A stretch of 64,000 bases of DNA, from positions 1,356 through 65,355 of the forward strand of contig JAKORL010000179.1 of NCBI GenBank assembly GCA_029777855.1, read 5' to 3'. The position numbers and the translations under genes are program-made. Below the pieces are notes generated by a model that saw only the letters and a program-made list of their open reading frames with translations, had not been told where the DNA came from and did not search any database. The DNA comes from Pseudomonadota bacterium (GTDB taxonomy: Bacteria; Pseudomonadota; Gammaproteobacteria; JAIEPX01). Within the stretch, counting starts at the first letter, position 1. Every line of letters starts with the position of its first letter. Positions 1 through 45,054 of the stretch are shown here, in pieces.

Positions 1-6
1 ACTGAG

Positions 7-1407
7 TTGAAAAAAATTGGCAATGAGATATCAAGTGTAATTGCTGATTTGCTAGACGATGTTCCGGAACCATTAAAAAAACGTTTTGGATATTATAATC
101 CACAGCAATGTGTTTACGATTTGTTTACTACGATGGCACTTATAGATCCAGAAAATTTCACATATGAATGTTTGAATGTTTCATGTAGAGGCGAAAAAGA
201 CGGGCAAAAAGGGCGTGTTGAATTAGATAATACAGACAAGTCGCCTGGTAATGTGCTGGTCTTGTCAACCGTTGTTGATCAAGATCGCTTCTATCGTAAT
301 TACATTGAATCTCTACGAAGCCACCCCGTGACCCGTATACAATCACCTCGCTCATCAGGTTTTTTTACGGTTAGACAATTAGAAAATAAAAATCTGACCT
401 CAATCCAATCAGACATTAAAAAGCAATTAGCTGAAAAATTAGAAGCCTTGTTGGGTGAATCAAAAAAAATCGTTTCACAGTTAGATCATATGGATTGTGG
501 GGTAGCATTGAATTTGCACACTATGCATCAAATTTTTTCTAGAATGGTTAATTTGTGTCAAGATAATAATTTTTTTGAATTAGAAGGTGTTCAGAGAAAA
601 TATCGGCGTTTTATACGTGACCTAGAGTTTGTGGCGTGTGAAAATGATCGCAATCGACAAGGGATTCTTTCTGCATTTGGTGAAAAATTTATGGTTGATC
701 TTGATGCACAATTACCCAAACTGAAAATGCACGAAACTGAATTGGTGAGTGATTACGATAAGGTACAAAAATTAAAAAAAGTCTGTGAATATTATTCTGA
801 AAAATCTGAGGATATTAAACTATCGACTGTGTTGTCTAAGGTTGCTCAATTATCTCAAGGTAAACCTGAGGTATATATAATCCGACCAATGCAATCGAGT
901 CATAATGTAGATGAGCTGTGGGTTGCACCATTCATTGACCGTGTGGTAGTACTGTTGACTATCGCCGGTATAAAGGTAATTACTAAAAAAACGCATGCTG
1001 CAGCTGGAACTTCCAAGGTTAAATTTTATAATCTTGCGAGAGAATCGGACTTTGTGTTGATATTTCAAACACCATTATTAAAACAGCAACATGAAAGTAA
1101 TGAATGGGACATTGCGGGAGCGCAATTTATTCATGCAATTAATAAGAAAAATCAAGAGCTCTCAAAAGACCTGCATCGTGTTATCCCTATACGTCTTTGT
1201 GGTATGGAACATGAACAACCACTATTTGGTGCCTGTATTGAAAATAGAGATTGGCCAGAGTTAGGTTTTATTCAAGGATTTATGATTATTCTGGGTGATA
1301 TCTTATTTCAGGGCAGACCAACACCTGAATTTTTGCAACTCTGGACTGAAATTGAACAAGAAGCTGATGACATGAATATTGCCCATGGTAAAACTGGACT
1401 AAAATAA
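7..1407 (+). CDS. Hypothetical protein with C-terminal SEFIR/TIR-like domain. The gene may extend upstream of the window: the first in-frame start is TTG at 7 and there is no upstream stop.
   Basis: 466-aa ORF. The C-terminal ~130 aa (EVYIIRPMQSS...DFVLIFQTPLLKQ...RVIPIRLCG) share a motif pattern with the N-termini of the two NB-ARC proteins downstream (xYxSYAWP, FVLLxGTPSLRxK, RVLPIxLIG). Confidence 0.5.
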   Translation: MKKIGNEISSVIADLLDDVPEPLKKRFGYYNPQQCVYDLFTTMALIDPENFTYECLNVSCRGEKDGQKGRVELDNTDKSPGNVLVLSTVVDQDRFYRNYIESLRSHPVTRIQSPRSSGFFTVRQLENKNLTSIQSDIKKQLAEKLEALLGESKKIVSQLDHMDCGVALNLHTMHQIFSRMVNLCQDNNFFELEGVQRKYRRFIRDLEFVACENDRNRQGILSAFGEKFMVDLDAQLPKLKMHETELVSDYDKVQKLKKVCEYYSEKSEDIKLSTVLSKVAQLSQGKPEVYIIRPMQSSHNVDELWVAPFIDRVVVLLTIAGIKVITKKTHAAAGTSKVKFYNLARESDFVLIFQTPLLKQQHESNEWDIAGAQFIHAINKKNQELSKDLHRVIPIRLCGMEHEQPLFGACIENRDWPELGFIQGFMIILGDILFQGRPTPEFLQLWTEIEQEADDMNIAHGKTGLK

Positions 1408-1545
1408 AGAGGTTTTTTGCCGATACATTTGTTACTGGACTTGAGATGAAAAAACCGTATACCCAGGTTAATCTATTCGACAAAAAACTCATTTTCAATA
1501 TCACATCATATTTTCGAATATGTTGATGTATTTGCAAAATTCGCC

Positions 1546-3402
1546 TCAAATTATGAGTATTGGATTAACACTTAATAGCTCCAGAATAGTAGGATCATTT
1601 GTAAGGTCTGCAGGCCGCTTACCATTTTTATCGAGTGTATGTGGTTGAGCTCCGGCACCCAGCAATAATCTGACACAATCAGTGTAACCTTTGACTACAG
1701 CGCGATGCAATGCAGTTTGACCGGTCGACGGTCCTGGTTGATCTATATCAGTTTTGAGAAAAATTAATAGCTTCAAACTTTCTTTATCGCAACTATTCGC
1801 GCACAATCTTGCTATCTTTGGAAGTTGAGTTTCATCTAGAATATTTTCTGAATAGCGAAGACACACAGCCTTTTTAAAAATCTCAATCAATTCAACATTA
1901 CCACTTCGAAGCAAATAGTCCATTGCGGTGCACTTTTCAATATCAATAATATCAAATTTAGCGTGGTGAGAAAGTAAACACTCGACTTGCGGTGCTCGAT
2001 TTTTTATAACAGCCAAATGTAGTGCCGTATACCCTTTTGTTTTATTTGAGTCTTGTTTATCGATATCTGAATGATGTAATACTAGTACATCTTCCAGCTC
2101 TTTTAATGTACCTAATACTGTTATTCTTCGAATTACCTGCCCCATATCTTGAGACTGTGTAGGCTCTTCATTTGAAAGTGCTGGGGTTGAGGAAAGTTTA
2201 GCTTGAATATTAGCTAGCATCTCAGTGGCTTCCATAGTTTTGGGATGTCTTGGTCCCAAAGTTGTGTTGAACGATTTTATACAATCGAGAAGAATATCAC
2301 ACGCTCTTTTTAAATTATTCAACCCTTTGTAAACATAGGCGAGCATGAATTTAGCAGAAGATATTTCAGGATGACCCTGAGGAAAAAATGATTCGATAAT
2401 TTTAAGATTTTTTTGATAATAGACTTCGGCTTGTGAATAATTTTTTTTACGTAAGTGAATATTGCCAATGCTGCGCAAGGTAGTTGCTATCTCAATATGC
2501 CCAGGTCCGTAGGCAGCCTCTTCGATGTTGAGTGTTTGTAGATAACATTCTAGTGCTTTGTCTAAGTCCCCTTGACAACTATGAACAGTACCAATACTGT
2601 AAATAACCATACCAACTTGACGACTTTGGGGTCCATAATGTTTCACTAAAATTGGCATGGCTCTATTAAATACCCCAAGAGCACGATCAAATTCTTCAAG
2701 ATTTTTATATGCATTACCTAAATTGGAAAGCACATCACCCACTTTAGCAGAATTACTGCCGTACTCTTTCTCGTATATTTGAAGAGCATGGGTCAAATGA
2801 TCTTTTGCGATATGCGGTTGATGCAGTAGTGCGGCACCTAAATTTGTTTCCACAAGTGCATATTCAACATGCTCAGTACCATAAACCCTCTTTAATATTA
2901 CCAAGGCATCTCTGAGATATTTAATTTGTAACTCAGGAAGTTTTAAATAAAAACATGTTGCAGCTAAGCTATTTAACGTTTTTGCAACTTGGGGATGATT
3001 TTCGCCGTGGGCTTTTATGAGAAGTTTTAGGGCTCGCTCGAGTATCTCCCTGGCTTCGTTAGAATGACCTAAAGTATTATAACAACTTGCAATGTTATGC
3101 AATGTAGATGCGATCTGAAAACTATCCTTCCCATATGCATGTTCTAAGATCTTTAATGCACGTGAATGCAATTCAAAGGCCTTTTTTGTCTCTCCAGATG
3201 AAAAATGTGCGTTCCCACAGTTACTCAGTTGGTAAGCAACATTTACATGAAATTTCCCAAATTTTTTTTCAAGAATATCTAAGGCTTTTTGATGAAAACG
3301 CTTTGCTAGATCATAATTGCCTAGATCAAGATGACAGCACCCTATATTTGTAAAAATGGCTTCAAACTTTCCAGGACTTTCGCCATATTTTTTTTTCTTC
3401 AC
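1546..3402 (-). CDS. TPR-repeat plus ankyrin-repeat protein. It is probably the C-terminal portion of the upstream NB-ARC-TPR gene, separated from it by a frameshift at an A9 tract.
   Basis: 617 aa with many TPR_12-type repeats (YAxxLxNLGxxYxxxGxxxxAxxxxxxAL) and C-terminal ankyrin repeats (GYTALHLAV..., GQTALHRAV...). It starts at GTG and overlaps the upstream ORF by 41 nt across a T9/A9 homopolymer. Confidence 0.6.
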   Translation of the reverse strand: MKKKKYGESPGKFEAIFTNIGCCHLDLGNYDLAKRFHQKALDILEKKFGKFHVNVAYQLSNCGNAHFSSGETKKAFELHSRALKILEHAYGKDSFQIASTLHNIASCYNTLGHSNEAREILERALKLLIKAHGENHPQVAKTLNSLAATCFYLKLPELQIKYLRDALVILKRVYGTEHVEYALVETNLGAALLHQPHIAKDHLTHALQIYEKEYGSNSAKVGDVLSNLGNAYKNLEEFDRALGVFNRAMPILVKHYGPQSRQVGMVIYSIGTVHSCQGDLDKALECYLQTLNIEEAAYGPGHIEIATTLRSIGNIHLRKKNYSQAEVYYQKNLKIIESFFPQGHPEISSAKFMLAYVYKGLNNLKRACDILLDCIKSFNTTLGPRHPKTMEATEMLANIQAKLSSTPALSNEEPTQSQDMGQVIRRITVLGTLKELEDVLVLHHSDIDKQDSNKTKGYTALHLAVIKNRAPQVECLLSHHAKFDIIDIEKCTAMDYLLRSGNVELIEIFKKAVCLRYSENILDETQLPKIARLCANSCDKESLKLLIFLKTDIDQPGPSTGQTALHRAVVKGYTDCVRLLLGAGAQPHTLDKNGKRPADLTNDPTILELLSVNPILII

Positions 3403-6400
3403 TTTTCAGTAGTTTCTCCAGAATATCTAGCGCCTTACCAGGTTCAGCTAAACTCAAATAGTTATTCGCTAGAGCAAAATTAATTTCAGTAATATTGTGC
3501 TGATTTTCTGCTTTGGAAGCCTCTATAGTTTTGTAGGTATTAATAAGCAATTTTTTGGCACGTTCAATGTCTCCAAGAGAGTTATAAGTGTCGGCAAGGC
3601 GGATAGCCGTTTTGATCACAGTTGTATTACTCTCACCAAAGGCTAATTTTTGTATTCCCAAAACCCTTTCATATCTTTCTTTTGCTTTTTCAAATTCACC
3701 GATATCTTCGCTGACATTAGCAAGAAGGAATAATGCTTCCGTAACTTTAATATGATGCGGCCCATATTTTTTTTCTACAAGCTCGAGAGCTAACAACAAT
3801 TGTTTTTCAGCGTCGTTATATTCACCGAGATCTGAAAGTGTTTCACCTAATTTGTGTAATAGCTCTAGACGTTTTGGGCTGTCAATGGTCAGCAGGGATT
3901 TACTAGATTCTATCGCACTATTGATATATTTTTTTGCAGAAAGAGAGTCTCCATCCTCTATAGCCAGAGAGGACAAATTAAGCTCATTATATATAACAGA
4001 TAAGTGAGCTTTGCCATAAAATTTGAGATTGATTCTATAGGATTCCTCTATTAAAGATTTAGCTAATTTCAGCTTGCCTAGTTTGAGAAAAGCACCGCCG
4101 AGCCCATTAAGTGTACTTGCAACCAATGGATGCTCTTCGCCATAAGTAGCTTTTTTAATTGCTAGAGCGCGTTCTAGAAAACGTATTCCTGTTAGTAAGT
4201 CATTTTGCTGACAATAAACATTTCCTAAATTATTGAGTATGTTAACAATTTGAATATTATCATCTCCGTAGAGTATTTCGGCCATTCTTAGTGCTTCTTC
4301 TAGAAAGTGTTTTGCTGCCTCTAGTTGACCGCCTACTCTATTGAGCGATCCTAGTGTACATAATACGGTACAAATACTAGATGGGGGGGTATCGGATTGA
4401 TTCTTGAATAGTTGATATGCGGTATTTAATAATTCTGTTGCTCTGTCATAATCATCGACATTCATGCAACTCAAGGACATATTATGTAGAATTTCGGCTT
4501 TTACAGGTAGTAGTGTGTCATCCGAGTTTATTATAGGGAGGATGCTTTCATACAGGCTGAGTTCCTTTAGGCTTTCTCCTAGTAGACTGTAAGTTGAAGC
4601 TAACATCACTTTTAAAGGTACTAAGAAATGAATTTTGATATCATTTTGATCCTTGCCATATTTCTCAAACAAACGAATACATTCTTGAAGATGAGGAAGA
4701 AGCCTTTTTTTTCTTGTCTCATTACGCAGTGGATTCTCAGTATAGAAAAAATGATGCATGATAACTATTCTTATGGCTTTTAAATAATCAACAGATTGAT
4801 CGATACTGTCAGATGCTCTTAAGATCTCTCTGATTAAATTATGGACCTCGATATGGTTTTCGATGGACGCGTTTTTAAGAAGGCCATAACGTCTTAATTC
4901 TCTTATTGCTTTGTCGCCAGAGAATGGATCTTGTGTAAAACAGTATAGCATCATCACATCAATAGGAACTTCAGAAGCGAGATAAGCACAAGCGTGGAAT
5001 ACTTGTTTGCAAGTATCACCTTTCAGTTTAGACAATGCTAACTGCACAGTGGTCCATACAGTTACTTGATGTGATGTAAAATCAGAGTGGGCGCTTTTTT
5101 CTTTAACATAAGGATCATTTATTGAAGGTATATCCAGTAAGCTTTGCTTTTTAACGTCGAATTCACAAATAAAATCTTTTATGCTTAGCGCATTTTCACA
5201 TATGTACGACAGAGCTTGTGTCAATGCCAATGGAAAGCGCCCTAATATCTCGACTAAGTTAACGATATTATCGTCCTCATCAAACAAAGACCCGTTTCTT
5301 TTTAAAAATTTTCGTGCATAAGCGACAGCATCTTCTAGTGTAAATACAGATAATATCACGGGATCAAATTCCGTAGGCCAATCATTTTGATTTGAGTTTC
5401 TTGTAGTGATTAATATATGAAAAGCTTTGTCATTTGGCAAAAATGGTGTAATGGGTTTTATTTTAAGAACATTATCAAACACTACTAAACACTTTCCGTC
5501 CCTTTGAGCGAGCTTCTTGTATACCTGTTGGTATAGATCATCACCTGTAAAGATCTCAGTATCAATTCTAAGTTGTTTGGCAAGTGTTGAAAATTGAATA
5601 GCTAACAAACCTGTTGAATTATGAAAATCATCGGTCCCGGCGTGGAACCATATGACACTACTATAACCAGATTGAGATGTAATTTGATTAATTGCTCGTT
5701 GACGATTTGCAAACATAGAAGCTAATACTGTTTTTCCCACGCCACCACTGCCACTGATATTTTTTCCTTGGCTGATAACTACCATGCTTTGATTTTCGAA
5801 TTTAGATAGTTTATTTAACTCAGCTTCTCGACCAGTAAAATCTTCAAATGGAAGTGGTAATTGAAAGCTACCATTAAAGCTTTCATTTTGAGAAACGGGT
5901 GAACTTTCAGATTGATTACTTAACTTGAGGTACAAAATCTCGTTTGATCGTTGCGTCTTGACATGTTTGTAAGATGTTAATTGCTCCAATTGACTTTGTT
6001 GTTCGGCAAAGTAGAGAGCTATCCTACTTTTATCCGGTGATCCAAGGGTACTTGGGTTGATAGAGTATCTCTTTAGATGTTCTGATTCAGATTCCCAGCA
6101 TTCCTCATATTCCTCCATACTAATGGCAGCAGAAAGTAATTGTGATAGGATACGTTTGAGTTGAAAGATGTAACTGTCATCTCTCCAGTCCCCTGCTACG
6201 GTAAATTCTTGTTGATACGCTGAAAATGTATCCAAGGGTGTGCCAATCAAGCGAAAAGGAATTACTTGCTGAAGAACTTGGTGTTGTGAAAGTTTATCTA
6301 TTCTCCAATAGGGATCTGATAATTTATCACGTAAAGAAGGTGTACCAGTCAGCAAGACAAATTGACATTTATCAGCCTCATTTGTGAAATCGGTTATGAG

Positions 6401-7078
6401 TTGATTTTCGTTATCTAATATATCAATTACGGAATGAATACCCGCGCTTCTTAGGTGTTGATGCACTTGAGATAAAAAAGCTTGAATATTTGATTCTTGT
6501 AATCTGAATCGTGGACTTGGCCAAGCATAGCTTAAATAACATGAAATTCTTATGTCATTTTTCTCTAAATGTTTTTTTATCTTAGATAATATAGTCCTTA
6601 ATGCTCCGTTGGCTAAGTCGTCACTCATGAATAGCACAAATTGGTGCATAAATTGGTCAGTTTTTTTCTGGTATTCCTCAAATCTTAAACTTCCGAAAGT
6701 AATCTGCTCATCGACTGGAATTAAACAATGATGAATTTTTTCACTAAGAGTCCTTGTTAGTTCTTCATGAATATCAGAAGAAAGACCATCTATCTCTCCA
6801 ATCGTTGCAATAAACCTGTTGGCCTGCTCAAGTTGATTACGCAAGGTAATAAAGTCGATTTGATCACTAAAAGAGCTTTTTGTGGTATTCAGTATATTAA
6901 GTATATATTGTAAATGAATGTTAATTTCTAAGTAGCAAGTCTTGTTAGAATGGCTGAATGATTTTTGGTATTCTTTGATTTCAGCAACGACCTCTATCAA
7001 CCGTTTATTAGCTTCCGCAGAATTTTTTTCATATAAACTCTGGACTTCAATTTCATGATATGAAACAGTCGATTTCAT
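3362..7078 (-). CDS. STAND NTPase: SEFIR/TIR-like N-terminal domain, NB-ARC ATPase, C-terminal TPR repeats
   Basis: 1238 aa. Motifs: P-loop SGSGGVGKT, Walker B CLVVFDNV, hhhhTTR (ILITTRN), GxP-like GRFPLALTQAL, then many kinesin-light-chain-type TPRs. The N-terminus carries CYLSYAWPS...FVLLTGTPSLRDK...QVIPFRLIG. Confidence 0.7.
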   Translation of the reverse strand: MKSTVSYHEIEVQSLYEKNSAEANKRLIEVVAEIKEYQKSFSHSNKTCYLEINIHLQYILNILNTTKSSFSDQIDFITLRNQLEQANRFIATIGEIDGLSSDIHEELTRTLSEKIHHCLIPVDEQITFGSLRFEEYQKKTDQFMHQFVLFMSDDLANGALRTILSKIKKHLEKNDIRISCYLSYAWPSPRFRLQESNIQAFLSQVHQHLRSAGIHSVIDILDNENQLITDFTNEADKCQFVLLTGTPSLRDKLSDPYWRIDKLSQHQVLQQVIPFRLIGTPLDTFSAYQQEFTVAGDWRDDSYIFQLKRILSQLLSAAISMEEYEECWESESEHLKRYSINPSTLGSPDKSRIALYFAEQQSQLEQLTSYKHVKTQRSNEILYLKLSNQSESSPVSQNESFNGSFQLPLPFEDFTGREAELNKLSKFENQSMVVISQGKNISGSGGVGKTVLASMFANRQRAINQITSQSGYSSVIWFHAGTDDFHNSTGLLAIQFSTLAKQLRIDTEIFTGDDLYQQVYKKLAQRDGKCLVVFDNVLKIKPITPFLPNDKAFHILITTRNSNQNDWPTEFDPVILSVFTLEDAVAYARKFLKRNGSLFDEDDNIVNLVEILGRFPLALTQALSYICENALSIKDFICEFDVKKQSLLDIPSINDPYVKEKSAHSDFTSHQVTVWTTVQLALSKLKGDTCKQVFHACAYLASEVPIDVMMLYCFTQDPFSGDKAIRELRRYGLLKNASIENHIEVHNLIREILRASDSIDQSVDYLKAIRIVIMHHFFYTENPLRNETRKKRLLPHLQECIRLFEKYGKDQNDIKIHFLVPLKVMLASTYSLLGESLKELSLYESILPIINSDDTLLPVKAEILHNMSLSCMNVDDYDRATELLNTAYQLFKNQSDTPPSSICTVLCTLGSLNRVGGQLEAAKHFLEEALRMAEILYGDDNIQIVNILNNLGNVYCQQNDLLTGIRFLERALAIKKATYGEEHPLVASTLNGLGGAFLKLGKLKLAKSLIEESYRINLKFYGKAHLSVIYNELNLSSLAIEDGDSLSAKKYINSAIESSKSLLTIDSPKRLELLHKLGETLSDLGEYNDAEKQLLLALELVEKKYGPHHIKVTEALFLLANVSEDIGEFEKAKERYERVLGIQKLAFGESNTTVIKTAIRLADTYNSLGDIERAKKLLINTYKTIEASKAENQHNITEINFALANNYLSLAEPGKALDILEKLLKSEEKKIWRKSWKV

Positions 7079-7155
7079 TTTCCGTTCCCCCTATTAATGC
7101 CAGTTTCTCTAAGTGCAATGAGTGCGCATGTTAATTAAAAATACCTCAATCAGCA

Positions 7156-9291
7156 TTATTTATTCAAATTTTCCGGTTGAGCGCATGATTCTGAGGTTAT
7201 CGCATACGCATGATTATGTCTCTTTTCGCTCGAAGATACGTGAAAACCTTGTTGGGTCATCAAAGTACCTTGCGCTGATTCAGCGTGTTTAATTTGTAAA
7301 TACCTGTCTGCAAAGGTTTTCGCAATAGGGAGATGGCTTTGTTGCGATGTTTCACAAAATAGTTGATAAAAGACAATTTTTAAGACCCTATTTATAGAGA
7401 TTGTCTCCGTTTTGCAGGATGCCACAACGATGCCAGACTTTAATAATTCAGTTAACTGTTCTTGGATTGGCTCATTGGGTAGTGATTTTCTTAATATCGT
7501 TAAATCGAGCGTTTCAAAGTTTGGAATTAATATACAAACTGATAATAGTGTTTTTGCTTGTGGTGACAGTCTGGAGAATATGGATTTAAGTACGCCATGT
7601 AAAGTGGCGCTTATAGGTTGATATAATTCATGTTCGTTGTTTTTTTCTAATTTATAGGGGTCATTTGAAAATAGTTTTGTTGAATATATCTTGTCTGGTG
7701 AATTGGTTAAGAGTGAGAGATACGAAGGAATTGTTTTGTTATTGTTCAGTATATAAGCAAGTGCTTGTGATAGCATCAGTGGATATCGTCCACATGTAGT
7801 GGCTAATTCTTTAATATCATGAGTCGAATATTGAGATTGGGGTTTTTTATTTTCTAGGAAACTACTGATATATCTAACCGCAGTCTCAAGTAAGAAATTA
7901 TCTAATAATAATAGATCAAATTGCTCACGCCATTCTGCTGATAAAGAATTTCGCGTCGTTAACAGTACGCTAAAACATTCATTATTGGGTGGCATAAAGG
8001 GCGATAGTTGTGATGGGCCATGAACATTGTCGAATACGATTAGGCATTTTCCGCGAAAGCCTAATTTTTCGTAAACGTATTGATAGACTTCATTATCACT
8101 TGTTGCGCGTACAGTATCCATTTCGAGTGAATTGGCGAGTTTGATAAATTGGCGCCGCAACAACTTTGGAGTATCTTCAGGATTTTCAGAGCCAGCTAAC
8201 ATCCAAATTACGTTTTTAAAATTTTTACTGGCTTCAGTCAGGTCTTCGTCCGTAATCATTTTTAGGTACATAGCAACGAGTTGAGTTTTTCCTATGCCCG
8301 GGAACCCTGTGATGCATACCCCCAATTTTTTATTTTGCAACGTGTTATTTAGCATGGTGTCAATTTGAGAAAGCTCAATCTGCCTACCAGTAAAAAAGTG
8401 ACTGACACGAGGTAGTTGAAAACTCCCATGAAAAGCAACATGTGTTGGTGGTAATCCTTGTCTTTCTTTCAGTAAAATTTTGCGGCAAACAGACTCCAGA
8501 TGCCTCTCTTTGTGTAGATATGACAATCTTGCGTCAGTACAGTTGATACTAATGCATTGTTTAAAAAACAGTTTTACTTTGGGTATGTGGTCTTCTAATT
8601 TCTCGGGCGTTAGTGAATGAGGGAATTGTTCCTTAAACGATGACCATAACTTGTTATACTCATGGCTGGGGTGTTTTTGAAAATAAATATCGCTTAATAA
8701 ATTTTGTAGTTGTGCAAGGTACTCTCCAGCGCACCAATCAATAACTTCTATATTCTCGAAAATGGATATAAAACTGTCGACTATTGCACCTATTAATATG
8801 ATGGGTAAAACTCGGTGTTGAGATGTAAGAGTATCTCGATGCTGTTTAGAAATAGTATTTGCCATAACTATTTTTTCAGGATTCCAATAGGGATCCTCAT
8901 GTTTTGAACGTAGTGAAGGTGTGCCAAACAGTAGGACAAAGTCAGTATCATTTGCCATAGAAGAAAAAGAGTAAATATCGTCGGTATCACGGTAGTTAAT
9001 AAGATCTAAAATTGGGTATATGCCAGCAAGTTTTAAATGAGCGTGGAGATTAATTAAGAATGGTTGCACCAATGATTCAGTTTCAGAATTACTCTCTATT
9101 GGCCAAGCATAGCTCATGTAACATCTGTAACCAGGTTTAGGAACGCCTTTTAGACGAGCGATATTTATCAGTAGCTCCTCAAAAGAGGATTTCATTTTCT
9201 CATTCATCATGAGACAAGCTTGTTGATACATCGTAATCGATATGTCAGAGAACTTTATATTCATGGCAATGACTCCTTGATATAACTTCAA
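7156..9291 (-). CDS. STAND NTPase: SEFIR/TIR-like N-terminal domain plus NB-ARC ATPase, with no C-terminal repeats. Paralog of 3362..7078.
   Basis: 711 aa. Motifs: P-loop GFPGIGKTQL, Walker B CLIVFDNV, VLLTTRN, GRYPLMLSQALAYI. The N-terminus carries YRCYMSYAWPIE...FVLLFGTPSLRSKHEDPYW...RVLPIILIG. Confidence 0.7.
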   Translation of the reverse strand: MKLYQGVIAMNIKFSDISITMYQQACLMMNEKMKSSFEELLINIARLKGVPKPGYRCYMSYAWPIESNSETESLVQPFLINLHAHLKLAGIYPILDLINYRDTDDIYSFSSMANDTDFVLLFGTPSLRSKHEDPYWNPEKIVMANTISKQHRDTLTSQHRVLPIILIGAIVDSFISIFENIEVIDWCAGEYLAQLQNLLSDIYFQKHPSHEYNKLWSSFKEQFPHSLTPEKLEDHIPKVKLFFKQCISINCTDARLSYLHKERHLESVCRKILLKERQGLPPTHVAFHGSFQLPRVSHFFTGRQIELSQIDTMLNNTLQNKKLGVCITGFPGIGKTQLVAMYLKMITDEDLTEASKNFKNVIWMLAGSENPEDTPKLLRRQFIKLANSLEMDTVRATSDNEVYQYVYEKLGFRGKCLIVFDNVHGPSQLSPFMPPNNECFSVLLTTRNSLSAEWREQFDLLLLDNFLLETAVRYISSFLENKKPQSQYSTHDIKELATTCGRYPLMLSQALAYILNNNKTIPSYLSLLTNSPDKIYSTKLFSNDPYKLEKNNEHELYQPISATLHGVLKSIFSRLSPQAKTLLSVCILIPNFETLDLTILRKSLPNEPIQEQLTELLKSGIVVASCKTETISINRVLKIVFYQLFCETSQQSHLPIAKTFADRYLQIKHAESAQGTLMTQQGFHVSSSEKRHNHAYAITSESCAQPENLNK

Positions 9292-9470
9292 ATTCCCGGG
9301 CCGAATATCTGTGTTAAAATTTCAACATATAGTTAGCATCTTATGCAAGTTACTTGCTATTATGAAAATAGTCAAATTACTTTTCTTGTGGGCATATATG
9401 TGGTATGTAATTATCATGCTTGTATATAATTTTGGGTAATCAATGGATTTTTGATAAGAAGGTAGAGAAA

Positions 9471-21937: not shown

Positions 21938-22564
21938 ATGAAACAGAGTTTAAAGAAGATTATAAAAGGTTATCACGTCTTTCGTAAAAAATATGCACAC
22001 GGAAATCGATCTGTCATGCGTGTATTATCCATGTATGGTCAAGAGCCTAAAGTGATGGTTATCGCTTGTTGCGATTCTCGAGTTGACCCCGCTTTGATAT
22101 TACAATGTGATCCAGGGGACCTTTTTGTTGTGAGAAATATCGCAAATATCGTGCCGCCTTATGAAAAAGATAAAGCCCACCATGGTACTAGTGCGGCGCT
22201 TGAGTTTGGAATCACCGTCTTAGAAGTCAAACATCTTATATTGCTGGGGCATAGTCAATGCGGTGGTATGCAGGCCCTGATGGACAAACGAACGGCAACC
22301 GAATACGACTTTATTAACAATTGGGTCTCAATTATTGATGCCCCTGTTACAGCACTTGAAAGTGTAGATGATTGTGCGAAATATGCATTAAATGAATCTT
22401 ATCAACATTGTCTTACTTTTCCATGGATTGCAGATCGAGTTGCCAAAAATGAATTGAATATTCATCAATGGTTTTTTGATATTTCAAAAGGACAAATCTA
22501 TACCTACTCACTCGATGAGAAAGTTTACAAACCACTCGAAGAATACGAGCTGCCTAAAAAATAA
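21938..22564 (+). CDS. Beta-class carbonic anhydrase
   Basis: Zinc ligands CCDSRVDP and HSQCGG. A strong RBS aaaggagg lies upstream. Transcribed divergently from sulP. Confidence 0.85.
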   Translation: MKQSLKKIIKGYHVFRKKYAHGNRSVMRVLSMYGQEPKVMVIACCDSRVDPALILQCDPGDLFVVRNIANIVPPYEKDKAHHGTSAALEFGITVLEVKHLILLGHSQCGGMQALMDKRTATEYDFINNWVSIIDAPVTALESVDDCAKYALNESYQHCLTFPWIADRVAKNELNIHQWFFDISKGQIYTYSLDEKVYKPLEEYELPKK

Positions 22565-22673
22565 TATTTCTATTTTTCATGTAGTTTAAATGAGAAATTA
22601 CTATACTGATAAATATTTTTGCGCTACTTTAAAGGCGGGCCGTAAAAAACTATTTTAACTCGCACTTTGAAAT

Positions 22674-23198
22674 TTAATTTTGAGATGCAGTCTTCAGTGC
22701 AAGATCAATTTCCGTTTCATCGAAAACAGAAATTCCATTATCAGTGAGTATTTTTGCTGTTACCCCCATTCCAGCAACCAATTTTTTGGAATGAGTGCCG
22801 TCATAAACTTGTTTAGATCCGCAAGACGGGCTGCGTGCTTTCAGTATTGCAACTTTGATATTGTGTTTTTTTGCCAGCTCCAATGCTTTTTCTGCGCCCT
22901 TGATATATTCCGAAGAGACATCATCGCCGTGGATTGTTAACACTTTTCCAAGGCCGTTTAATACGTGTTCGGCTGATTTTCCAGGTTCAATTTCTGAAGG
23001 TGGTCTCGGTGTAGGCAACCCCCCTGCCATCTCAGGACATATTGCCACAACTTTGCCCTGTTCAATCCATTGGTGCAACAAATCGTTTGATTGTAGACAA
23101 TCTTTCGCATCAAAACGTACTTTCTGTCCAATCAAGCAGGCACTTACCAATATTTTAGACAAAGCATTCTCCTTAAAAAATATTGCGATATGTCCCAA
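22674..23198 (-). CDS. DUF523-family protein (TudS-like Fe-S protein)
   Basis: N-terminal ILVSACLIGQKVRFD and conserved Cys residues (CPEMAGG, SPSCGS), as in the DUF523 family. Confidence 0.55.
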   Translation of the reverse strand: MGHIAIFFKENALSKILVSACLIGQKVRFDAKDCLQSNDLLHQWIEQGKVVAICPEMAGGLPTPRPPSEIEPGKSAEHVLNGLGKVLTIHGDDVSSEYIKGAEKALELAKKHNIKVAILKARSPSCGSKQVYDGTHSKKLVAGMGVTAKILTDNGISVFDETEIDLALKTASQN

Positions 23199-24810: not shown

Positions 24811-25986
24811 CTAAGCATTATCTGTGTCAGTTGATTCTGTTGTGTAATTTAGCAATTCTGGTAATCGCTTCAAACCTTCTAGTATTGGCAGTGCGGTAAT
24901 ATTGTCGTGGTATTCAGGAGCTTCTCCACCATAAAGTAGATATAATTTAGCCATGGGGTAATCATTGCTGAATGTACGTAGCCCCCTTAAATCTTTTGTT
25001 GAGATTTTTCGTTTTCGCTTAATTTCGAAAGCAATTAATCCGTTTTCGCCATAAACAACAAAATCTACTTCGAGGCCATTACGCGTCCGCCAATAATAAA
25101 TTGTGTAACCTAGATCTAGATAATCATTGATAGCACGAAGATGCTGAACAAATAAAGTTTCCAATGCACGGCCATCGATTTCGGATTGTAGGTCAAGGGG
25201 ACCAGTTGGGCGAATAGCGCGGTACACGCCGACATCGAAGAAATAAAATTTAGGATGAGCAATTAATTGTCTTTGTGCACGTTTCATAAATATAGGCACT
25301 TTAAAACCTATTAATAAATCTTCAGTAATTTGAAAGTAGGTACTGACAATTTTTTGCTTAATGCCTGCTTCTCGAGCAACTTCTGACATATTCAGCACTT
25401 CGCCCTGTGAAAAGCTTGCCACTTCTAAAAAGCGACTAAATTCTCCAATATTCCTCAAAATACCTTCTTGCAGAATTTCTTCTTGTAAATAAGTTCCGAT
25501 ATAGGTTTTTAAATAGTGTTGTGCATTTTCTGAAGAATATACTTTAGGTAATAACCCAAATTTCAGGGCTACATCTAGGCTAAAATCATCTCCCAATTCT
25601 CGACAGGTGAGCGGATGCATAGTGTAGCTTAGTGCACGCCCAGCAAGTAAGTTTGCTCCCTCGCGTTTTAGTTTTCTAGCGCTCGAACCCGTTAAGAGGA
25701 ACTTATAACCTTTTGATTCGATTAGACGATGTACTTCATTTAATAACGCTGGAATTTTTTGCACTTCATCGATTACGATCCAATTTTGGAAATTTGGAGG
25801 GATATGATTTTCTAATCGGCTAGGGTTTGCAATAAACTCGGCGAAAGTTGCGGTTTTTAACAAATTAAAGACCAATGCATCAGGTAGATGGTGTGTTATC
25901 CAGTGCGTCTTTCCGGTACCCCGTGGGCCGAGCAATAAGCAGCTTTCTTTAGACTTAGGATTGATTTTAAGGAGCCGGTTGTACAT
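24811..25986 (-). CDS. AAA+ ATPase with DUF4143-type C-terminal domain
   Basis: Walker A LLGPRGTGKTH and Walker B WIVIDEVQK. This architecture is common in ATPases of unknown function that are often linked to mobile elements. Confidence 0.7.
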   Translation of the reverse strand: MYNRLLKINPKSKESCLLLGPRGTGKTHWITHHLPDALVFNLLKTATFAEFIANPSRLENHIPPNFQNWIVIDEVQKIPALLNEVHRLIESKGYKFLLTGSSARKLKREGANLLAGRALSYTMHPLTCRELGDDFSLDVALKFGLLPKVYSSENAQHYLKTYIGTYLQEEILQEGILRNIGEFSRFLEVASFSQGEVLNMSEVAREAGIKQKIVSTYFQITEDLLIGFKVPIFMKRAQRQLIAHPKFYFFDVGVYRAIRPTGPLDLQSEIDGRALETLFVQHLRAINDYLDLGYTIYYWRTRNGLEVDFVVYGENGLIAFEIKRKRKISTKDLRGLRTFSNDYPMAKLYLLYGGEAPEYHDNITALPILEGLKRLPELLNYTTESTDTDNA

Positions 25987-26262
25987 GTATCTGATTCCTT
26001 CATGAGCCTTACTCGATGATAGCGGATCTTTATAAAACAGTCAATTTGGCGTCAATAATTCTAAAAATGCTGCATTTTTGTCCATTTATGGGATAAAAAT
26101 ACTACCTTTTTTGTCTACAAAGCCCTCTGAAATTCAATAATGTAACAAACGCTGGATAAATGCCCTCGGGGCTTGCTTTTATCAGGGTCATGGTTTACAA
26201 TTTACATAGATAACATCAATTTTGTAAACATTGTTGGTTTTGTGATACAGGAGATAGTAGTC

Positions 26263-27315
26263 ATGTTTAACATTCGACTCCATCGAGCTCGTAAGGCGGC
26301 CGGCTTAAGCTACCGCGCTTTAGCTCAGCTCGTTGGTTTGTCACAAACAGCCATTAAAAAGTACGAGGACGGTATTATGATGCCGTCATCCGACATCCTG
26401 ATACGGCTGTCTCATGCACTTAATGTACGAACGGAATATTTTTTCCGACCCGAAAAACACGCGCTAGAGGGAATCGAATATCGTAAACATAACTCCTTAC
26501 CTAAAAAGCGACTTGATGCTATTGAAAATGAGGTGCTTGATCATATTGAAAGACGAATTGAATTAGAGGAATTATTTCCACAACCACCTGTCAAAGTTTT
26601 TTCTTCCGTTGATGGGTTACCAAAATTAATTACTGATATGAATAAAATCGAATCTGTTGCTGAGCGTGTTCGTGAGGTTTGGAAACTCGGTCTAGACCCC
26701 ATACCCGATTTAATCGATACACTTGAGACCAATGGCATACGAGTCTTCATGATAGATGCAGATGCTGATAACAAATTTGATGGGCTAGCAGCCAGCATTA
26801 ATGGCATGCCGATTATAGTCGTTGGTCTACACTGGCCTGGAGATCGACAACGCTTTACATTGGCACATGAACTTGGGCACCTCATACTTAAAGATCGACT
26901 CTCAAAAGATTTAGACGAAGAAAATGCCTGCCATCGTTTTGCAGGTGCTTTTTTACTTCCACAGACTTCTTTGATGCAGGAACTTGGAAAATATCGAAAT
27001 GCGATAGAGCTAAAAGAACTAGGATTATTGAAAGAAGAATTTGGATTATCCATGGCCGCCATTTTATATCGCGCATTAGATAACAAAATAATTACATCAA
27101 GCTATCACCACAAACAATTCAAGTTATTTCGAAAATTAGGCTGGAATATAACAGAACCTGGACAAATTTATCCAACCGAAAAAGCACACATTTTCGAACA
27201 ATTATTATTTCATGCCCTCGCTGAGGATTATATAGGCGAATCAAAGGCAGCAGAATTGATGAATCTATCCCTTCAACAATTTCGACGCATACGCTCTCTG
27301 GAAAGCAGCTATTGA
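26263..27315 (+). CDS. XRE-family HTH regulator fused to an ImmA/IrrE-family zinc metallopeptidase domain
   Basis: HTH region LSYRALAQLVGLSQTAIKKYEDG and an HEXXH motif (FTLAHELGHLIL). The start was set at MFNIRLH, which follows the RBS ggaga. The track ORF begins 90 nt earlier. Confidence 0.7.
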   Translation: MFNIRLHRARKAAGLSYRALAQLVGLSQTAIKKYEDGIMMPSSDILIRLSHALNVRTEYFFRPEKHALEGIEYRKHNSLPKKRLDAIENEVLDHIERRIELEELFPQPPVKVFSSVDGLPKLITDMNKIESVAERVREVWKLGLDPIPDLIDTLETNGIRVFMIDADADNKFDGLAASINGMPIIVVGLHWPGDRQRFTLAHELGHLILKDRLSKDLDEENACHRFAGAFLLPQTSLMQELGKYRNAIELKELGLLKEEFGLSMAAILYRALDNKIITSSYHHKQFKLFRKLGWNITEPGQIYPTEKAHIFEQLLFHALAEDYIGESKAAELMNLSLQQFRRIRSLESSY

Positions 27316-43173: not shown

Positions 43174-45054
43174 ATGGATTTTAATAAGACATTTGATGTG
43201 ATTGTAGTAGGCGGTGGGCATGCGGGAACCGAGGCGGCGCTGGCGGCTGCTAGGATGGGAGCTCAAACACTGTTGTTGAGTCATAATATAGAGACGCTGG
43301 GCCAAATGTCGTGTAATCCCGCCATCGGGGGGATAGGTAAGGGGCACTTGGTCAAAGAGATTGATGCGCTGGGCGGGATTATGGCTCGTGCAATTGATCA
43401 AGCGGGCATTCAGTTTCGTATCTTAAATGCCAGTAAGGGGCCCGCAGTTCGGGCTACACGCGCCCAAGCTGACCGAGTACTCTACAAGCAAGCCATTCGC
43501 CATGCGCTCGAGAATCAGCCTAACTTAACGCTGTTTCAACAGGCTGTTGAAGATCTCATTATTGCCAATGGTCGTGTTAGTGGTGTTGTCACCCAGATGG
43601 GATTGAATTTTTACACCAAGACGGTTGTGCTGACTGCGGGTACTTTTCTGGGTGGCAAGATTCACATCGGGCTATCCAATTATCGTGGAGGACGCGCCGG
43701 AGATCCACCGGCATTGGCATTAGCTGAACGGTTGCGAGCCCTACCCTTTCGTGTTGATCGCTTAAAAACAGGGACTCCCCCGCGCATTGACGGGCGTACC
43801 ATTGATTATTCAGAATTACAAGAACAGCCCGGTGATACTCCAACGCCAGTATTTTCTTATCTAGGTAATGCAAAAGAACACCCTACCCAGGTAAGTTGTT
43901 TTATTACTCATACAAACGCAAAAACACACGAAATAATTCGCACAGGATTTGAGCGCTCTCCCCTTTTTACAGGAATTATTGAAGGTACAGGTCCACGATA
44001 CTGCCCATCAATCGAAGACAAAGTGGTGAGATTTGCAGAAAGAGACTCGCATCAAATTTTTATTGAACCTGAAGGCCTTACTACGCACGAAATTTATCCG
44101 AACGGAATTTCTACGAGTCTCCCCTTTGATGTGCAAATGGCTTTTGTACGTAGCATGAAGGGTTTTTCAAATGCGCATATCACGAGACCTGGTTATGCTA
44201 TTGAGTACGATTATTTTGATCCGCGCGATTTGCACCCTTGGTTGGAAACGAAATTAATGCCGGGGCTATTTTTTGCTGGACAAATTAACGGCACTACAGG
44301 TTATGAAGAAGCCGCAGCTCAAGGATTAATTGCGGGTTTAAATGCTGCACGTGTTGCTCAAAATTGCTCAACTTGGTACCCAACGCGTGATCAAGCTTAT
44401 ATGGGTGTTTTAATTGATGATTTGATTACATGCGGTACGACAGAACCTTATCGTATGTTCACATCGCGAGCAGAATATCGGTTATTACTGCGAGAAGATA
44501 ATGCTGATTTACGATTAACCACTATCGGTCGAGATCTTGGCCTTGTTGATGATGAGCGATGGAATGCATTTACTTCTAAAAAAACTAAAATCGAAGAATT
44601 ACAAGAACGACTCAATAAATTTTTAGTTCGCCCAAATTCAGAAATCGCAACTCGGTTTCAGGAACGATTTAATACACCTCTAGAACGAGAATATTTTGCT
44701 GTTGAATTGTTACGTAGGCCAGAAGTCACTTTAGATGGCTTAATGGAAATTCTAAATGATTCAACTGAACTCTCTCCTACTGTAAAAGAACAAGTTGAAA
44801 TTCACAATAAATATGAGGGCTATATCAAACGTCAGCAAGAAGAAATCGATCGGCAAAAACGTCACGAAGAAACAGTGTTATCACATCATTTTGACTATGA
44901 AATTGTGAGTGGGTTATCAACGGAAGTGAAACAAAAACTCAAATCTGTCCGCCCCACTACTCTTGGACAAGCAGCTCGAATTCCAGGTGTAACACCTGCA
45001 GCGATTTCATTATTGTTAGTGCATATTAAAAAAGGTGTTCATACAAGTTGTTAG
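43174..45054 (+). CDS. mnmG: tRNA uridine 5-carboxymethylaminomethyl modification enzyme MnmG (GidA)
   Basis: FAD-binding [14 protein letters not shown]. Full-length conservation over 626 aa. Confidence 0.95.

Follow-up and report, generated by a model that had tools for sequence, protein, structure and literature searches.

The stretch analysed here, 64 kb of contig JAKORL010000179.1 and called the window below, holds at 1..10.4 kb the reading frames relevant to this study: open reading frames (ORFs) A, B, C and D, followed by the gene of a HAD-superfamily hydrolase. Chromosomal genes of NLR-like (STAND, NB-ARC) receptors are clustered here, and A, C and D share a domain of the TIR/SEFIR type. 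TIR-fold domains are known in two roles: they cleave NAD as enzymes (in bacteria, plants and SARM1), or they act purely as scaffolds for assembly (MyD88, IL-17R/Act1). All three copies in the window lack the glutamate found at the catalytic position in most of the family, and we tentatively regard them as modules that may dock the receptors to the product of gene A. An earlier reading of the same DNA, called the original prediction below, had described the cluster as a candidate NAD-depleting immune module.

The features of the cluster are listed by coordinates and strand. A3 is a 49-sequence alignment of the domain family, on which the A3 hidden Markov model (HMM) and the family profile are based; the Glu column is the alignment position of the family glutamate.

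1..1407, + strand: gene A, reaching beyond the 5' end of the window; visible as ORF A, 7..1407, its 3' part
13..294, + strand: C-terminal ~94 residues of the nucleoside hydrolase (IUNH, PF01156) domain of gene A, by Pfam IU_nuc_hydro and ortholog alignment
835..1371, + strand: A-type TIR/SEFIR-like domain; A3 HMM E = 1.4e-49; without the SYAW motif; Q373 at the Glu column
1546..7078, − strand: gene C/B, a single STAND gene of 1843 amino acids (aa), showing as ORFs C and B in the window
1546..3402, − strand: ORF B, 618 aa; TPR and ankyrin by Pfam
3362..7078, − strand: ORF C, 1238 aa
1594..4501, − strand: presumed sensor region of C/B; TPR at ~2257..4501, then ankyrin at 1594..2082
3388..3396, + strand coordinates: homopolymer, an A run on the coding (−) strand; A9 in the window, A8 in the other assembly
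4979..5845, − strand: NB-ARC of C/B; GSGGVGKT, LVVFDNV, ILITTRN, GRFPLAL; Pfam 31.7 bits
6068..6577, − strand: C-type TIR/SEFIR-like domain; A3 HMM E = 1e-50; 'DPYW'; S264 at the Glu column
7156..9291, − strand: gene D, 711 aa, or 702 aa with the start of the public gene call
7489..8403, − strand: NB-ARC of D; GFPGIGKT, LIVFDNV, VLLTTRN, GRYPLML; Pfam 28.4 bits, residues 320–523
8617..9159, − strand: D-type TIR/SEFIR-like domain; V142 at the Glu column, E139 three residues earlier
9420..10385, + strand: HAD-superfamily hydrolase (HAD_2); Pfam HAD_2 E = 5e-14

Gene models and architecture of the cluster

The original prediction had listed the 1238-aa ORF C as a protein of its own. It had overlooked that C and B are fused, that a nucleoside-hydrolase gene is cut off by the window's edge and that a HAD gene is a conserved neighbour. 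In the public protein collection, an 1843-aa protein (P0002) corresponded to C residues 1–1232 joined to B from residue 5 on. An exact-match look-up with the 1238-aa form of ORF C returned no contig, while the 1843-aa form matched one, assembled independently from the genome of the window (run SRR15686344). Over 14,717 bp it aligned with the window without a mismatch and with a single gap, at the A8 run. C/B appears split into ORFs of 1238 and 618 aa because of the single-base A9/A8 difference, and the A9 at 3388..3396 reflects an error of assembly or else heterogeneity of the homopolymer. We rejected 1546..3402 as a separate gene; a real, fixed pseudogenising frameshift was likewise rejected as the default model, a lone homopolymer difference being all that separates two otherwise identical assemblies.

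D and C/B are co-directional, with D 77 bp upstream of C/B; A is convergent with them, and the HAD gene is divergent from D. The product of C/B comprises, in order, a helical pre-domain, the TIR/SEFIR-like domain, NB-ARC, a long TPR array and ankyrin repeats. That of D consists of the TIR/SEFIR-like domain, NB-ARC and a helical C-terminus, without a repeat array. The NB-ARC assignment of the original prediction was confirmed: both proteins scored above the Pfam NB-ARC (PF00931) gathering score of 23.5 bits and carried the GxGKT, hhhFDN, TTR and G(R)xPLxL motifs. In the sensor region of C/B, Pfam recognized TPR_12 (E = 3.7e-45 and 2.9e-59) and Ank_2 (E = 2.9e-16). Proteins with the shared domain are for the most part STAND proteins: among 42 full-length members of the family scanned, NB-ARC was found in 22, TPR_12 in 19, NACHT in six and ankyrin repeats in six. 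Promoter-like sites were not more frequent in the window than in shuffled sequence and terminator-like sites were only somewhat commoner (12 versus 6.8 ± 2.4 in shuffles); neither was used for interpretation.

No in-frame stop precedes the TTG at position 7 of ORF A, and the ORF aligned with residues 648–1098 of a 1123-aa protein, P0007, that is, with its C-terminal part (55% identity, 451 aa). ORF A is therefore the 3' part of a larger gene leaving the window. The shared domain attributed to this ORF, and its C-terminal position there, were correctly described in the original prediction. The visible order is the C-terminal end of an IUNH domain, a helical linker and the C-terminal TIR/SEFIR-like domain. 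The match of the first ~96 residues to Pfam IU_nuc_hydro (E = 4.4e-4) was below the cut-off and covered only positions 204–296 of the 297 in the profile; the aspartate of 'VYD' in gene A aligned with that of 'LHD' in RihA. P0007 contains a helical region, TIR-like copy 1 (172–373), a PF01156 domain (427–744), a helical linker and TIR-like copy 2. Its IU_nuc_hydro domain was complete (Pfam E = 5e-49) and aligned end to end with E. coli RihA (3g5i, E = 1.2e-24), the CDPGVDD motif and the C-terminal Asp being kept.

P0007 is encoded on a 60-kb contig (L084) of a different organism with ~40% G+C, which also holds the D ortholog P0005 (53% identity). Within ~20 kb this contig carries P0017 (C-type), P0007 (A-type), a 1390-aa C-type gene, P0010 (C-type) and a HAD gene, and P0005 (D-type) lies ~21 kb from the rest of the cluster. 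The gene set of A, C-type, D-type and HAD recurs in this second genome. Between the window and L084, identities were 53–55% for the A and D orthologs and 50% over 296 aa for the HAD products (9420..10385 against 22176..23090); C-type paralogs shared only ~35%. As a conserved neighbour of the cluster, the HAD gene is possibly part of the module. In the window its product is extended at the N-terminus by ~75 residues, a hydrophobic stretch among them. On L085, a short contig of a third organism, a C/B-type gene is followed by an A-like gene. The latter (L085 2611..4757) is split into two overlapping frames of 292 and 397 aa within its first TIR-like domain; here too a frameshift or a fault of assembly is possible.

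Homology, fold and catalytic position of the shared domain

D and C are paralogs across their first ~600 residues (BLASTP: 32% identity, 592 aa, E = 2e-68). The similarity of D to A (29% identity, 162 aa, E = 6e-18) was confined to a stretch of ~160 residues, and C matched A at E = 1e-3. A six-frame HMM scan of the 64-kb window found exactly three copies of the domain, those of A, C and D. On these BLASTP similarities and the profile scan, the sharing of a domain is real and far beyond chance. The homology of the domain in the three ORFs, as originally proposed, was borne out, and the motifs quoted for it (SYAWP, AGI, FVLLxGTPSL, PYW and RV[IL]P) are present; the proposed length of ~130 aa fell short, since the HMM envelopes span ~170–180 aa.

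A helical pre-domain of ~165 aa lies ahead of the TIR-like domain of C. Throughout the family a pre-domain of this kind (~150 aa) lies immediately ahead of the TIR-like domain, also where the two are internal to a protein (P0006, P0047, P0055, P0059, P0123), and the predicted mobile unit is a bipartite module of ~340 aa—pre-domain plus TIR-like domain. Giant family proteins, e.g., P0006 (5114 aa), contain up to three such pairs.

The most divergent members of the family, the window copies among them, escape the TIR, SEFIR and defence models. Pfam gave no SEFIR/TIR match at E ≤ 1 with the four whole proteins A–D and none at E ≤ 10 with the isolated D copy; the window copies remained below the gathering score of Pfam SEFIR (PF08357). 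This Pfam scan had been set beforehand as a refuting test of the SEFIR/TIR relationship, and with the window copies alone its outcome formally went against that relationship, which is seen only via the family profile. A profile of the three window copies retrieved nothing relevant from the PDB sequences. A word-indexed search of 5.8 billion proteins returned no match for the isolated domain or for gene A, and for full-length D it returned only D itself and its ortholog P0005. With a four-sequence profile, no relative was found on the contigs of GTDB species representatives; searched exhaustively with HMMER, 1.84 billion cluster representatives yielded 539 proteins at E ≤ 1e-3, 210 of them at E ≤ 1e-10. 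These 539 clusters at 50% identity constitute the family; its proteins are mostly large and multidomain, some with two or three copies of the domain.

The A3 profile matched the Bacillus cereus SEFIR structure 5Y8E/5Y8F with E = 7e-11 (profile positions 11–154, chain residues 2–137). Pfam recognized TIR_2 in 40 of the 49 A3 members (best E = 8e-12), SEFIR in six (best E = 4.6e-7) and TIR in three. The family profile also aligned with the TIR domain of SARM1 (hhalign probability 88%, E = 3e-6). AlphaFold2 modelled the D copy on the A3 alignment with a mean pLDDT of 93.4 and a pTM of 0.89; a model from four sequences (pLDDT 60) was not used for the fold search. The predicted fold is flavodoxin-like, a three-layer alpha/beta arrangement whose beta-sheet is parallel, and it superimposes on TIR and SEFIR domains of known structure. 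The tabulated values of the structural comparison were as follows.

Act1 SEFIR: 14.1
Hydra TRR-2 TIR: 13.5
SARM1 TIR: 13.0
BcSEFIR: 13.0
MyD88 TIR: 12.9
TIRAP: 12.3
IL-17RA SEFIR: 12.1

The top Foldseek matches were SPARTA TIR-APAZ, MyD88, Act1 and SARM1, and a search of a viral fold library yielded no significant match. The shared domain has a very divergent TIR/SEFIR (STIR clan) fold, and the SEFIR/TIR resemblance put forward earlier was upheld by the family profile and the structure prediction. Membership in the STIR clan through Pfam TIR_2 (PF13676) would follow by transitive homology only, the window copies having no direct match, and the domain cannot be firmly placed in either Pfam family, TIR or SEFIR. 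Filing the proteins under Pfam SEFIR or under a known PADLOC system was rejected.

A stand-alone family member of 367 aa (A3 HMM E = 5e-51) is encoded on plasmid pPC997_2 of Legionella sp. PC997 (L088 8566..9669) and named 'toll/interleukin-1 receptor domain-containing protein' in RefSeq. It consists of the pre-domain and a Glu-bearing TIR-like domain; the plasmid is conjugative, and the gene lies among transposase, toxin-antitoxin and integrase genes.

In most family members a helix with the conserved pattern 'x-V-C-T-E-L' follows the 'GTxSL' strand. Its glutamate aligned with the Glu of 'VHKEI', E642 of SARM1 (hhalign), and with 'GTET' of BcSEFIR (PDB profile alignment). Glutamate occupies this column in 114 of 138 family domains (83%), and the 24 exceptions include all three window copies, which have V142 (D), S264 (C) and Q373 (A, ORF numbering) instead. 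Their closest relatives likewise lack it. The C copy has in addition a deletion of ~14 aa in helix alphaC, the helix that bears the glutamate in the family. In a neighbour-joining tree the D- and C-type domains form one clade of eight, all of them Glu-less, and the A-type domains a separate Glu-less clade of four; the two clades co-occur in the same loci. The A-type has no acidic residue either at the Glu column or three residues before it (−3). Copy 1 of P0007 and copy 1 of the L085 homolog retain the family glutamate.

The window copies therefore lack the feature by which TIR/SEFIR NADases are recognized, a glutamate in helix alphaC at the position of SARM1 E642. Its replacement in all three makes the originally proposed NAD-depleting role doubtful for these copies. 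Judged from the alignment, NAD depletion is not supported for the window copies, yet it is plausible for the family at large, which as a whole is probably enzymatic.

Candidate functions of the cluster

A tentative preference goes to a docking function: the Glu-less TIR-like domains may connect the STAND sensors to the nucleoside-hydrolase partner A rather than cleave NAD+. The TPR/ankyrin region of C/B would sense a phage- or stress-derived ligand, and NB-ARC-driven oligomerisation would cluster the Glu-less domains into homotypic docking surfaces, comparable to SEFIR in IL-17R/Act1 and TIR in MyD88 and with no NADase role. These surfaces would recruit the product of gene A via its own Glu-less C-terminal TIR-like domain. 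Induced proximity would then activate A, predicted from the ortholog to include, outside the window, a Glu-bearing N-terminal TIR-like copy joined to the Ca2+-type nucleoside hydrolase. Activated A might degrade NAD+, nucleosides or a TIR-derived ADP-ribose nucleotide, and the HAD phosphatase may feed or complete nucleotide breakdown; D, which is without sensor repeats, may help C/B or pair with it. The expected result would be an arrest of growth or abortive infection.

Such an arrangement has precedents. Homotypic adaptor domains common to STAND NTPases and neighbouring effector genes have been described as the 'EAD principle' (PMC8195603). The plant-pathogen effector XopQ, an enzyme of the PF01156 family, cleaves the TIR product 2'cADPR (10.64898/2026.06.15.732069, a 2026 preprint), and the hydrolase of the cluster, predicted to have the same fold, could therefore be a new effector or signal-processing step. 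A more far-reaching proposal would make the locus a bacterial counterpart of animal adaptor signalling, with dead TIR/SEFIR-fold docking modules linking STAND sensors to an active TIR-like/IUNH effector and the HAD phosphatase. We consider it doubtful as a whole; if true, it would define a new effector route of immunity based on nucleotide degradation, and an evolutionary stage lying between TIR domains that are enzymes and those that are scaffolds.

Several observations weigh against docking. The D/C clade keeps an acidic residue at −3 (E139 and D261; W-x-x-[ED]-K, column 100), and E139/D261 could substitute catalytically. Most of gene A's hydrolase, like its TIR copy with the Glu, would lie outside the window and is assigned by way of an ortholog of 55% identity. 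The A-like gene of L085 has two TIR-like copies and no hydrolase domain; the hydrolase is not obligatory. Linkage of the genes was seen in two or three related low-G+C genomes only, and inherited synteny could account for it. The three subtypes of the window are no more alike one another than they are to orthologs elsewhere, unlike typical effector-associated domains (EADs). No known defence system was recognized with PADLOC-DB v2, whose models include SEFIR, Avs, bNACHT and Thoeris among others: A and D gave no match, and weak matches were limited to the TPR region of C (C3a156 'oxidoreductase', E = 6e-5) and to the TPR and ankyrin parts of B. We infer every step of the mechanism beyond the domain assignments.

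An alternative, that of the original prediction, is that the TIR/SEFIR-like domains are NADases themselves, a shifted acidic residue replacing the glutamate, and that phage-triggered STAND oligomerisation depletes NAD+ in abortive infection, as in bacterial SEFIR, TIR-Avs and plant TNLs. In its favour, the domain shares its fold and superfamily with NAD-cleaving TIR and SEFIR domains, 83% of the family keeps the catalytic-position Glu, and an E or D is conserved at −3 in the D/C clade; the order of N-terminal effector, STAND and TPR is also that of Avs-type systems, and a bacterial SEFIR defence protein uses the SEFIR domain at its N-terminus to deplete NAD+ (10.1101/2024.02.11.579819). Against it, all three window copies lack the glutamate aligned with SARM1 E642, the Glu-bearing helix of C is shortened by ~14 aa, A has no acidic residue at either position, and no SEFIR, TIR or Avs model of PADLOC matched at E ≤ 1, while the Glu-less TIR/SEFIR domains of animals (MyD88, IL-17R/Act1) serve as scaffolds. 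We regard direct NAD+ cleavage by the window copies as unlikely. Quite improbable, in our judgement, is a role of these proteins as eukaryote-like secreted effectors or mimics with which a host-associated, Legionellales-like bacterium would disturb TIR/SEFIR, NLR or ankyrin signalling of its host, without any function as immune receptors. The window has a low G+C content of ~37%, as do related loci (36–40%), and abounds in ankyrin, in TPR and in large ORFs that have no known domain; the sole named organism found to carry a family member is Legionella (on a plasmid), and the ankyrin parts weakly resemble the Dot/Icm effectors AnkY and AnkH, far below the cut-off. A protein of 1843 aa with a functional-looking P-loop would, on the other hand, be atypical of translocated effectors, and no secretion-system genes were seen in the window. 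Paralog expansion and the combination of an effector-like domain with STAND and repeats are typical of intracellular conflict-system receptors, and the fast divergence of the C-type paralogs (35% identity versus 50–55% for A, D and HAD) is the pattern expected of conflict receptors.

The NCBIfam model NF040586 (FxSxx_TPR) raised the further alternative that C/B is an FxsT-type NB-ARC-TPR regulator or scaffold of an FxSxx-COOH radical-SAM peptide pathway, or of another pathway of the RiPP (ribosomally synthesized and post-translationally modified peptide) or SARP-like kind, with no role in immunity. The 1843-aa C/B protein scored 320.5 bits against the curated cut-off of 300, and D stayed below it with 66 bits; tblastn of D against plasmids likewise led to actinomycete fxsT and BTAD/SARP-type NB-ARC-TPR genes at 22–28% identity. 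The C/B score is, however, a sum over five stretches that include generic TPR; the specific match is the NB-ARC part (profile positions 6–372), with NB-ARC stretches at residues 412–798 in C/B and 297–601 in D. No radical-SAM/SPASM maturase occurred among the 30 window ORFs scanned with Pfam, and such a function would leave the TIR-like domains and the linked hydrolase gene unexplained. It is very improbable.

Among the closest known systems, the prokaryotic SEFIR domain BcSEFIR (5Y8E/5Y8F) and the single-gene SEFIR anti-phage system differ from the cluster in that the window copies fall below the Pfam and PADLOC SEFIR models and are without the 'GTET' Glu; moreover, the window domains are joined to NB-ARC-TPR modules and occur as three paralogs beside a nucleoside-hydrolase gene. 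Plant TNLs and bacterial TIR_2-STAND proteins, including TIR-bearing Avs/AVAST, have the same order of TIR fold, NB-ARC (TTR, GxPLAL) and repeat sensor, and most family members resemble these TIR-NB-ARC receptors in matching TIR_2 and in keeping the catalytic Glu. The window proteins deviate from them by sensors of TPR and ankyrin instead of LRR, by Glu-less copies, by the helical pre-domain and by the lack of a PADLOC Avs match. Compared with the animal adaptors MyD88, TIRAP and IL-17RA/RB-Act1, the domain of the window is bacterial and shares only 9–13% identity, and its assembly is a prediction. The EADs described by Kaur, Burroughs, Iyer and Aravind (PMC7159879, PMC8195603) offer a likeness in layout: a putative non-catalytic domain is terminal both on a STAND NTPase and on an adjacent protein that carries an enzyme, and each locus has several copies. 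Those EADs are small, mostly alpha-helical and Death-like, whereas the shared domain here is a degenerate TIR/SEFIR fold, present as three old subtypes rather than as recent, near-identical copies. The gene A ortholog resembles XopQ/HopQ1 and the RihA-type IUNH in its full PF01156 domain, the DPGxDD motif and the C-terminal Asp, and differs in that its hydrolase is flanked by two TIR-like domains within one cytoplasmic protein of a bacterium.

TIR-NB-ARC-TPR proteins are of an already known kind. What appears to be undescribed is the divergent Glu-less branch and the conserved way in which it is paired with a HAD hydrolase and a TIR-like/nucleoside-hydrolase protein; no description of this combination was found in the literature searched or in the Pfam, NCBIfam and PADLOC libraries. 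The locus makes the evolutionary transition of TIR domains from enzyme to adaptor directly testable. Both states may coexist in one cluster, Glu-less on two sensors and on the tail of their partner and Glu-bearing, as in the orthologs, at the partner's head. With this locus, hydrolases of the PF01156 and HAD kinds are also brought into connection with a STAND/TIR module.

Neighbouring genes in the window

A further STAND protein of 1589 aa, with N-terminal ankyrin, NACHT (E = 1e-11) and a long uncharacterised C-terminal region, is encoded at 11084..15853 (+ strand). It is without a TIR-like domain, its PADLOC matches were P-loop matches only (E ≥ 0.005), and it adjoins the cluster in the second assembly of the genome too. 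Between the HAD and NACHT genes lies an 89-aa ORF (10682..10951, + strand) whose public call has a weak match to rve_3 (integrase core), probably what is left of a transposase.

The genes rnpA, yidC, mnmE and mnmG (gidA) were found at 16.0–19.8 kb and 43174..45054, which places the window in the origin-proximal part of the chromosome. The source is a gammaproteobacterium; against 185,579 GTDB species representatives its MnmG reached no more than 70% identity, with matches scattered over the Gammaproteobacteria. Four tightly packed, consecutive ORFs of 1298, 900, 840 and 773 aa occupy 52495..63983 (− strand), with no Pfam match at E ≤ 1e-3. An ATPase with AAA_14 and DUF4143 (24811..25986, − strand) adjoins an HTH_3 and Peptidase_M78 (ImmA/IrrE-like) protein (26173..27315, + strand); domains of either type are frequent in mobile elements and in stress or defence switches.

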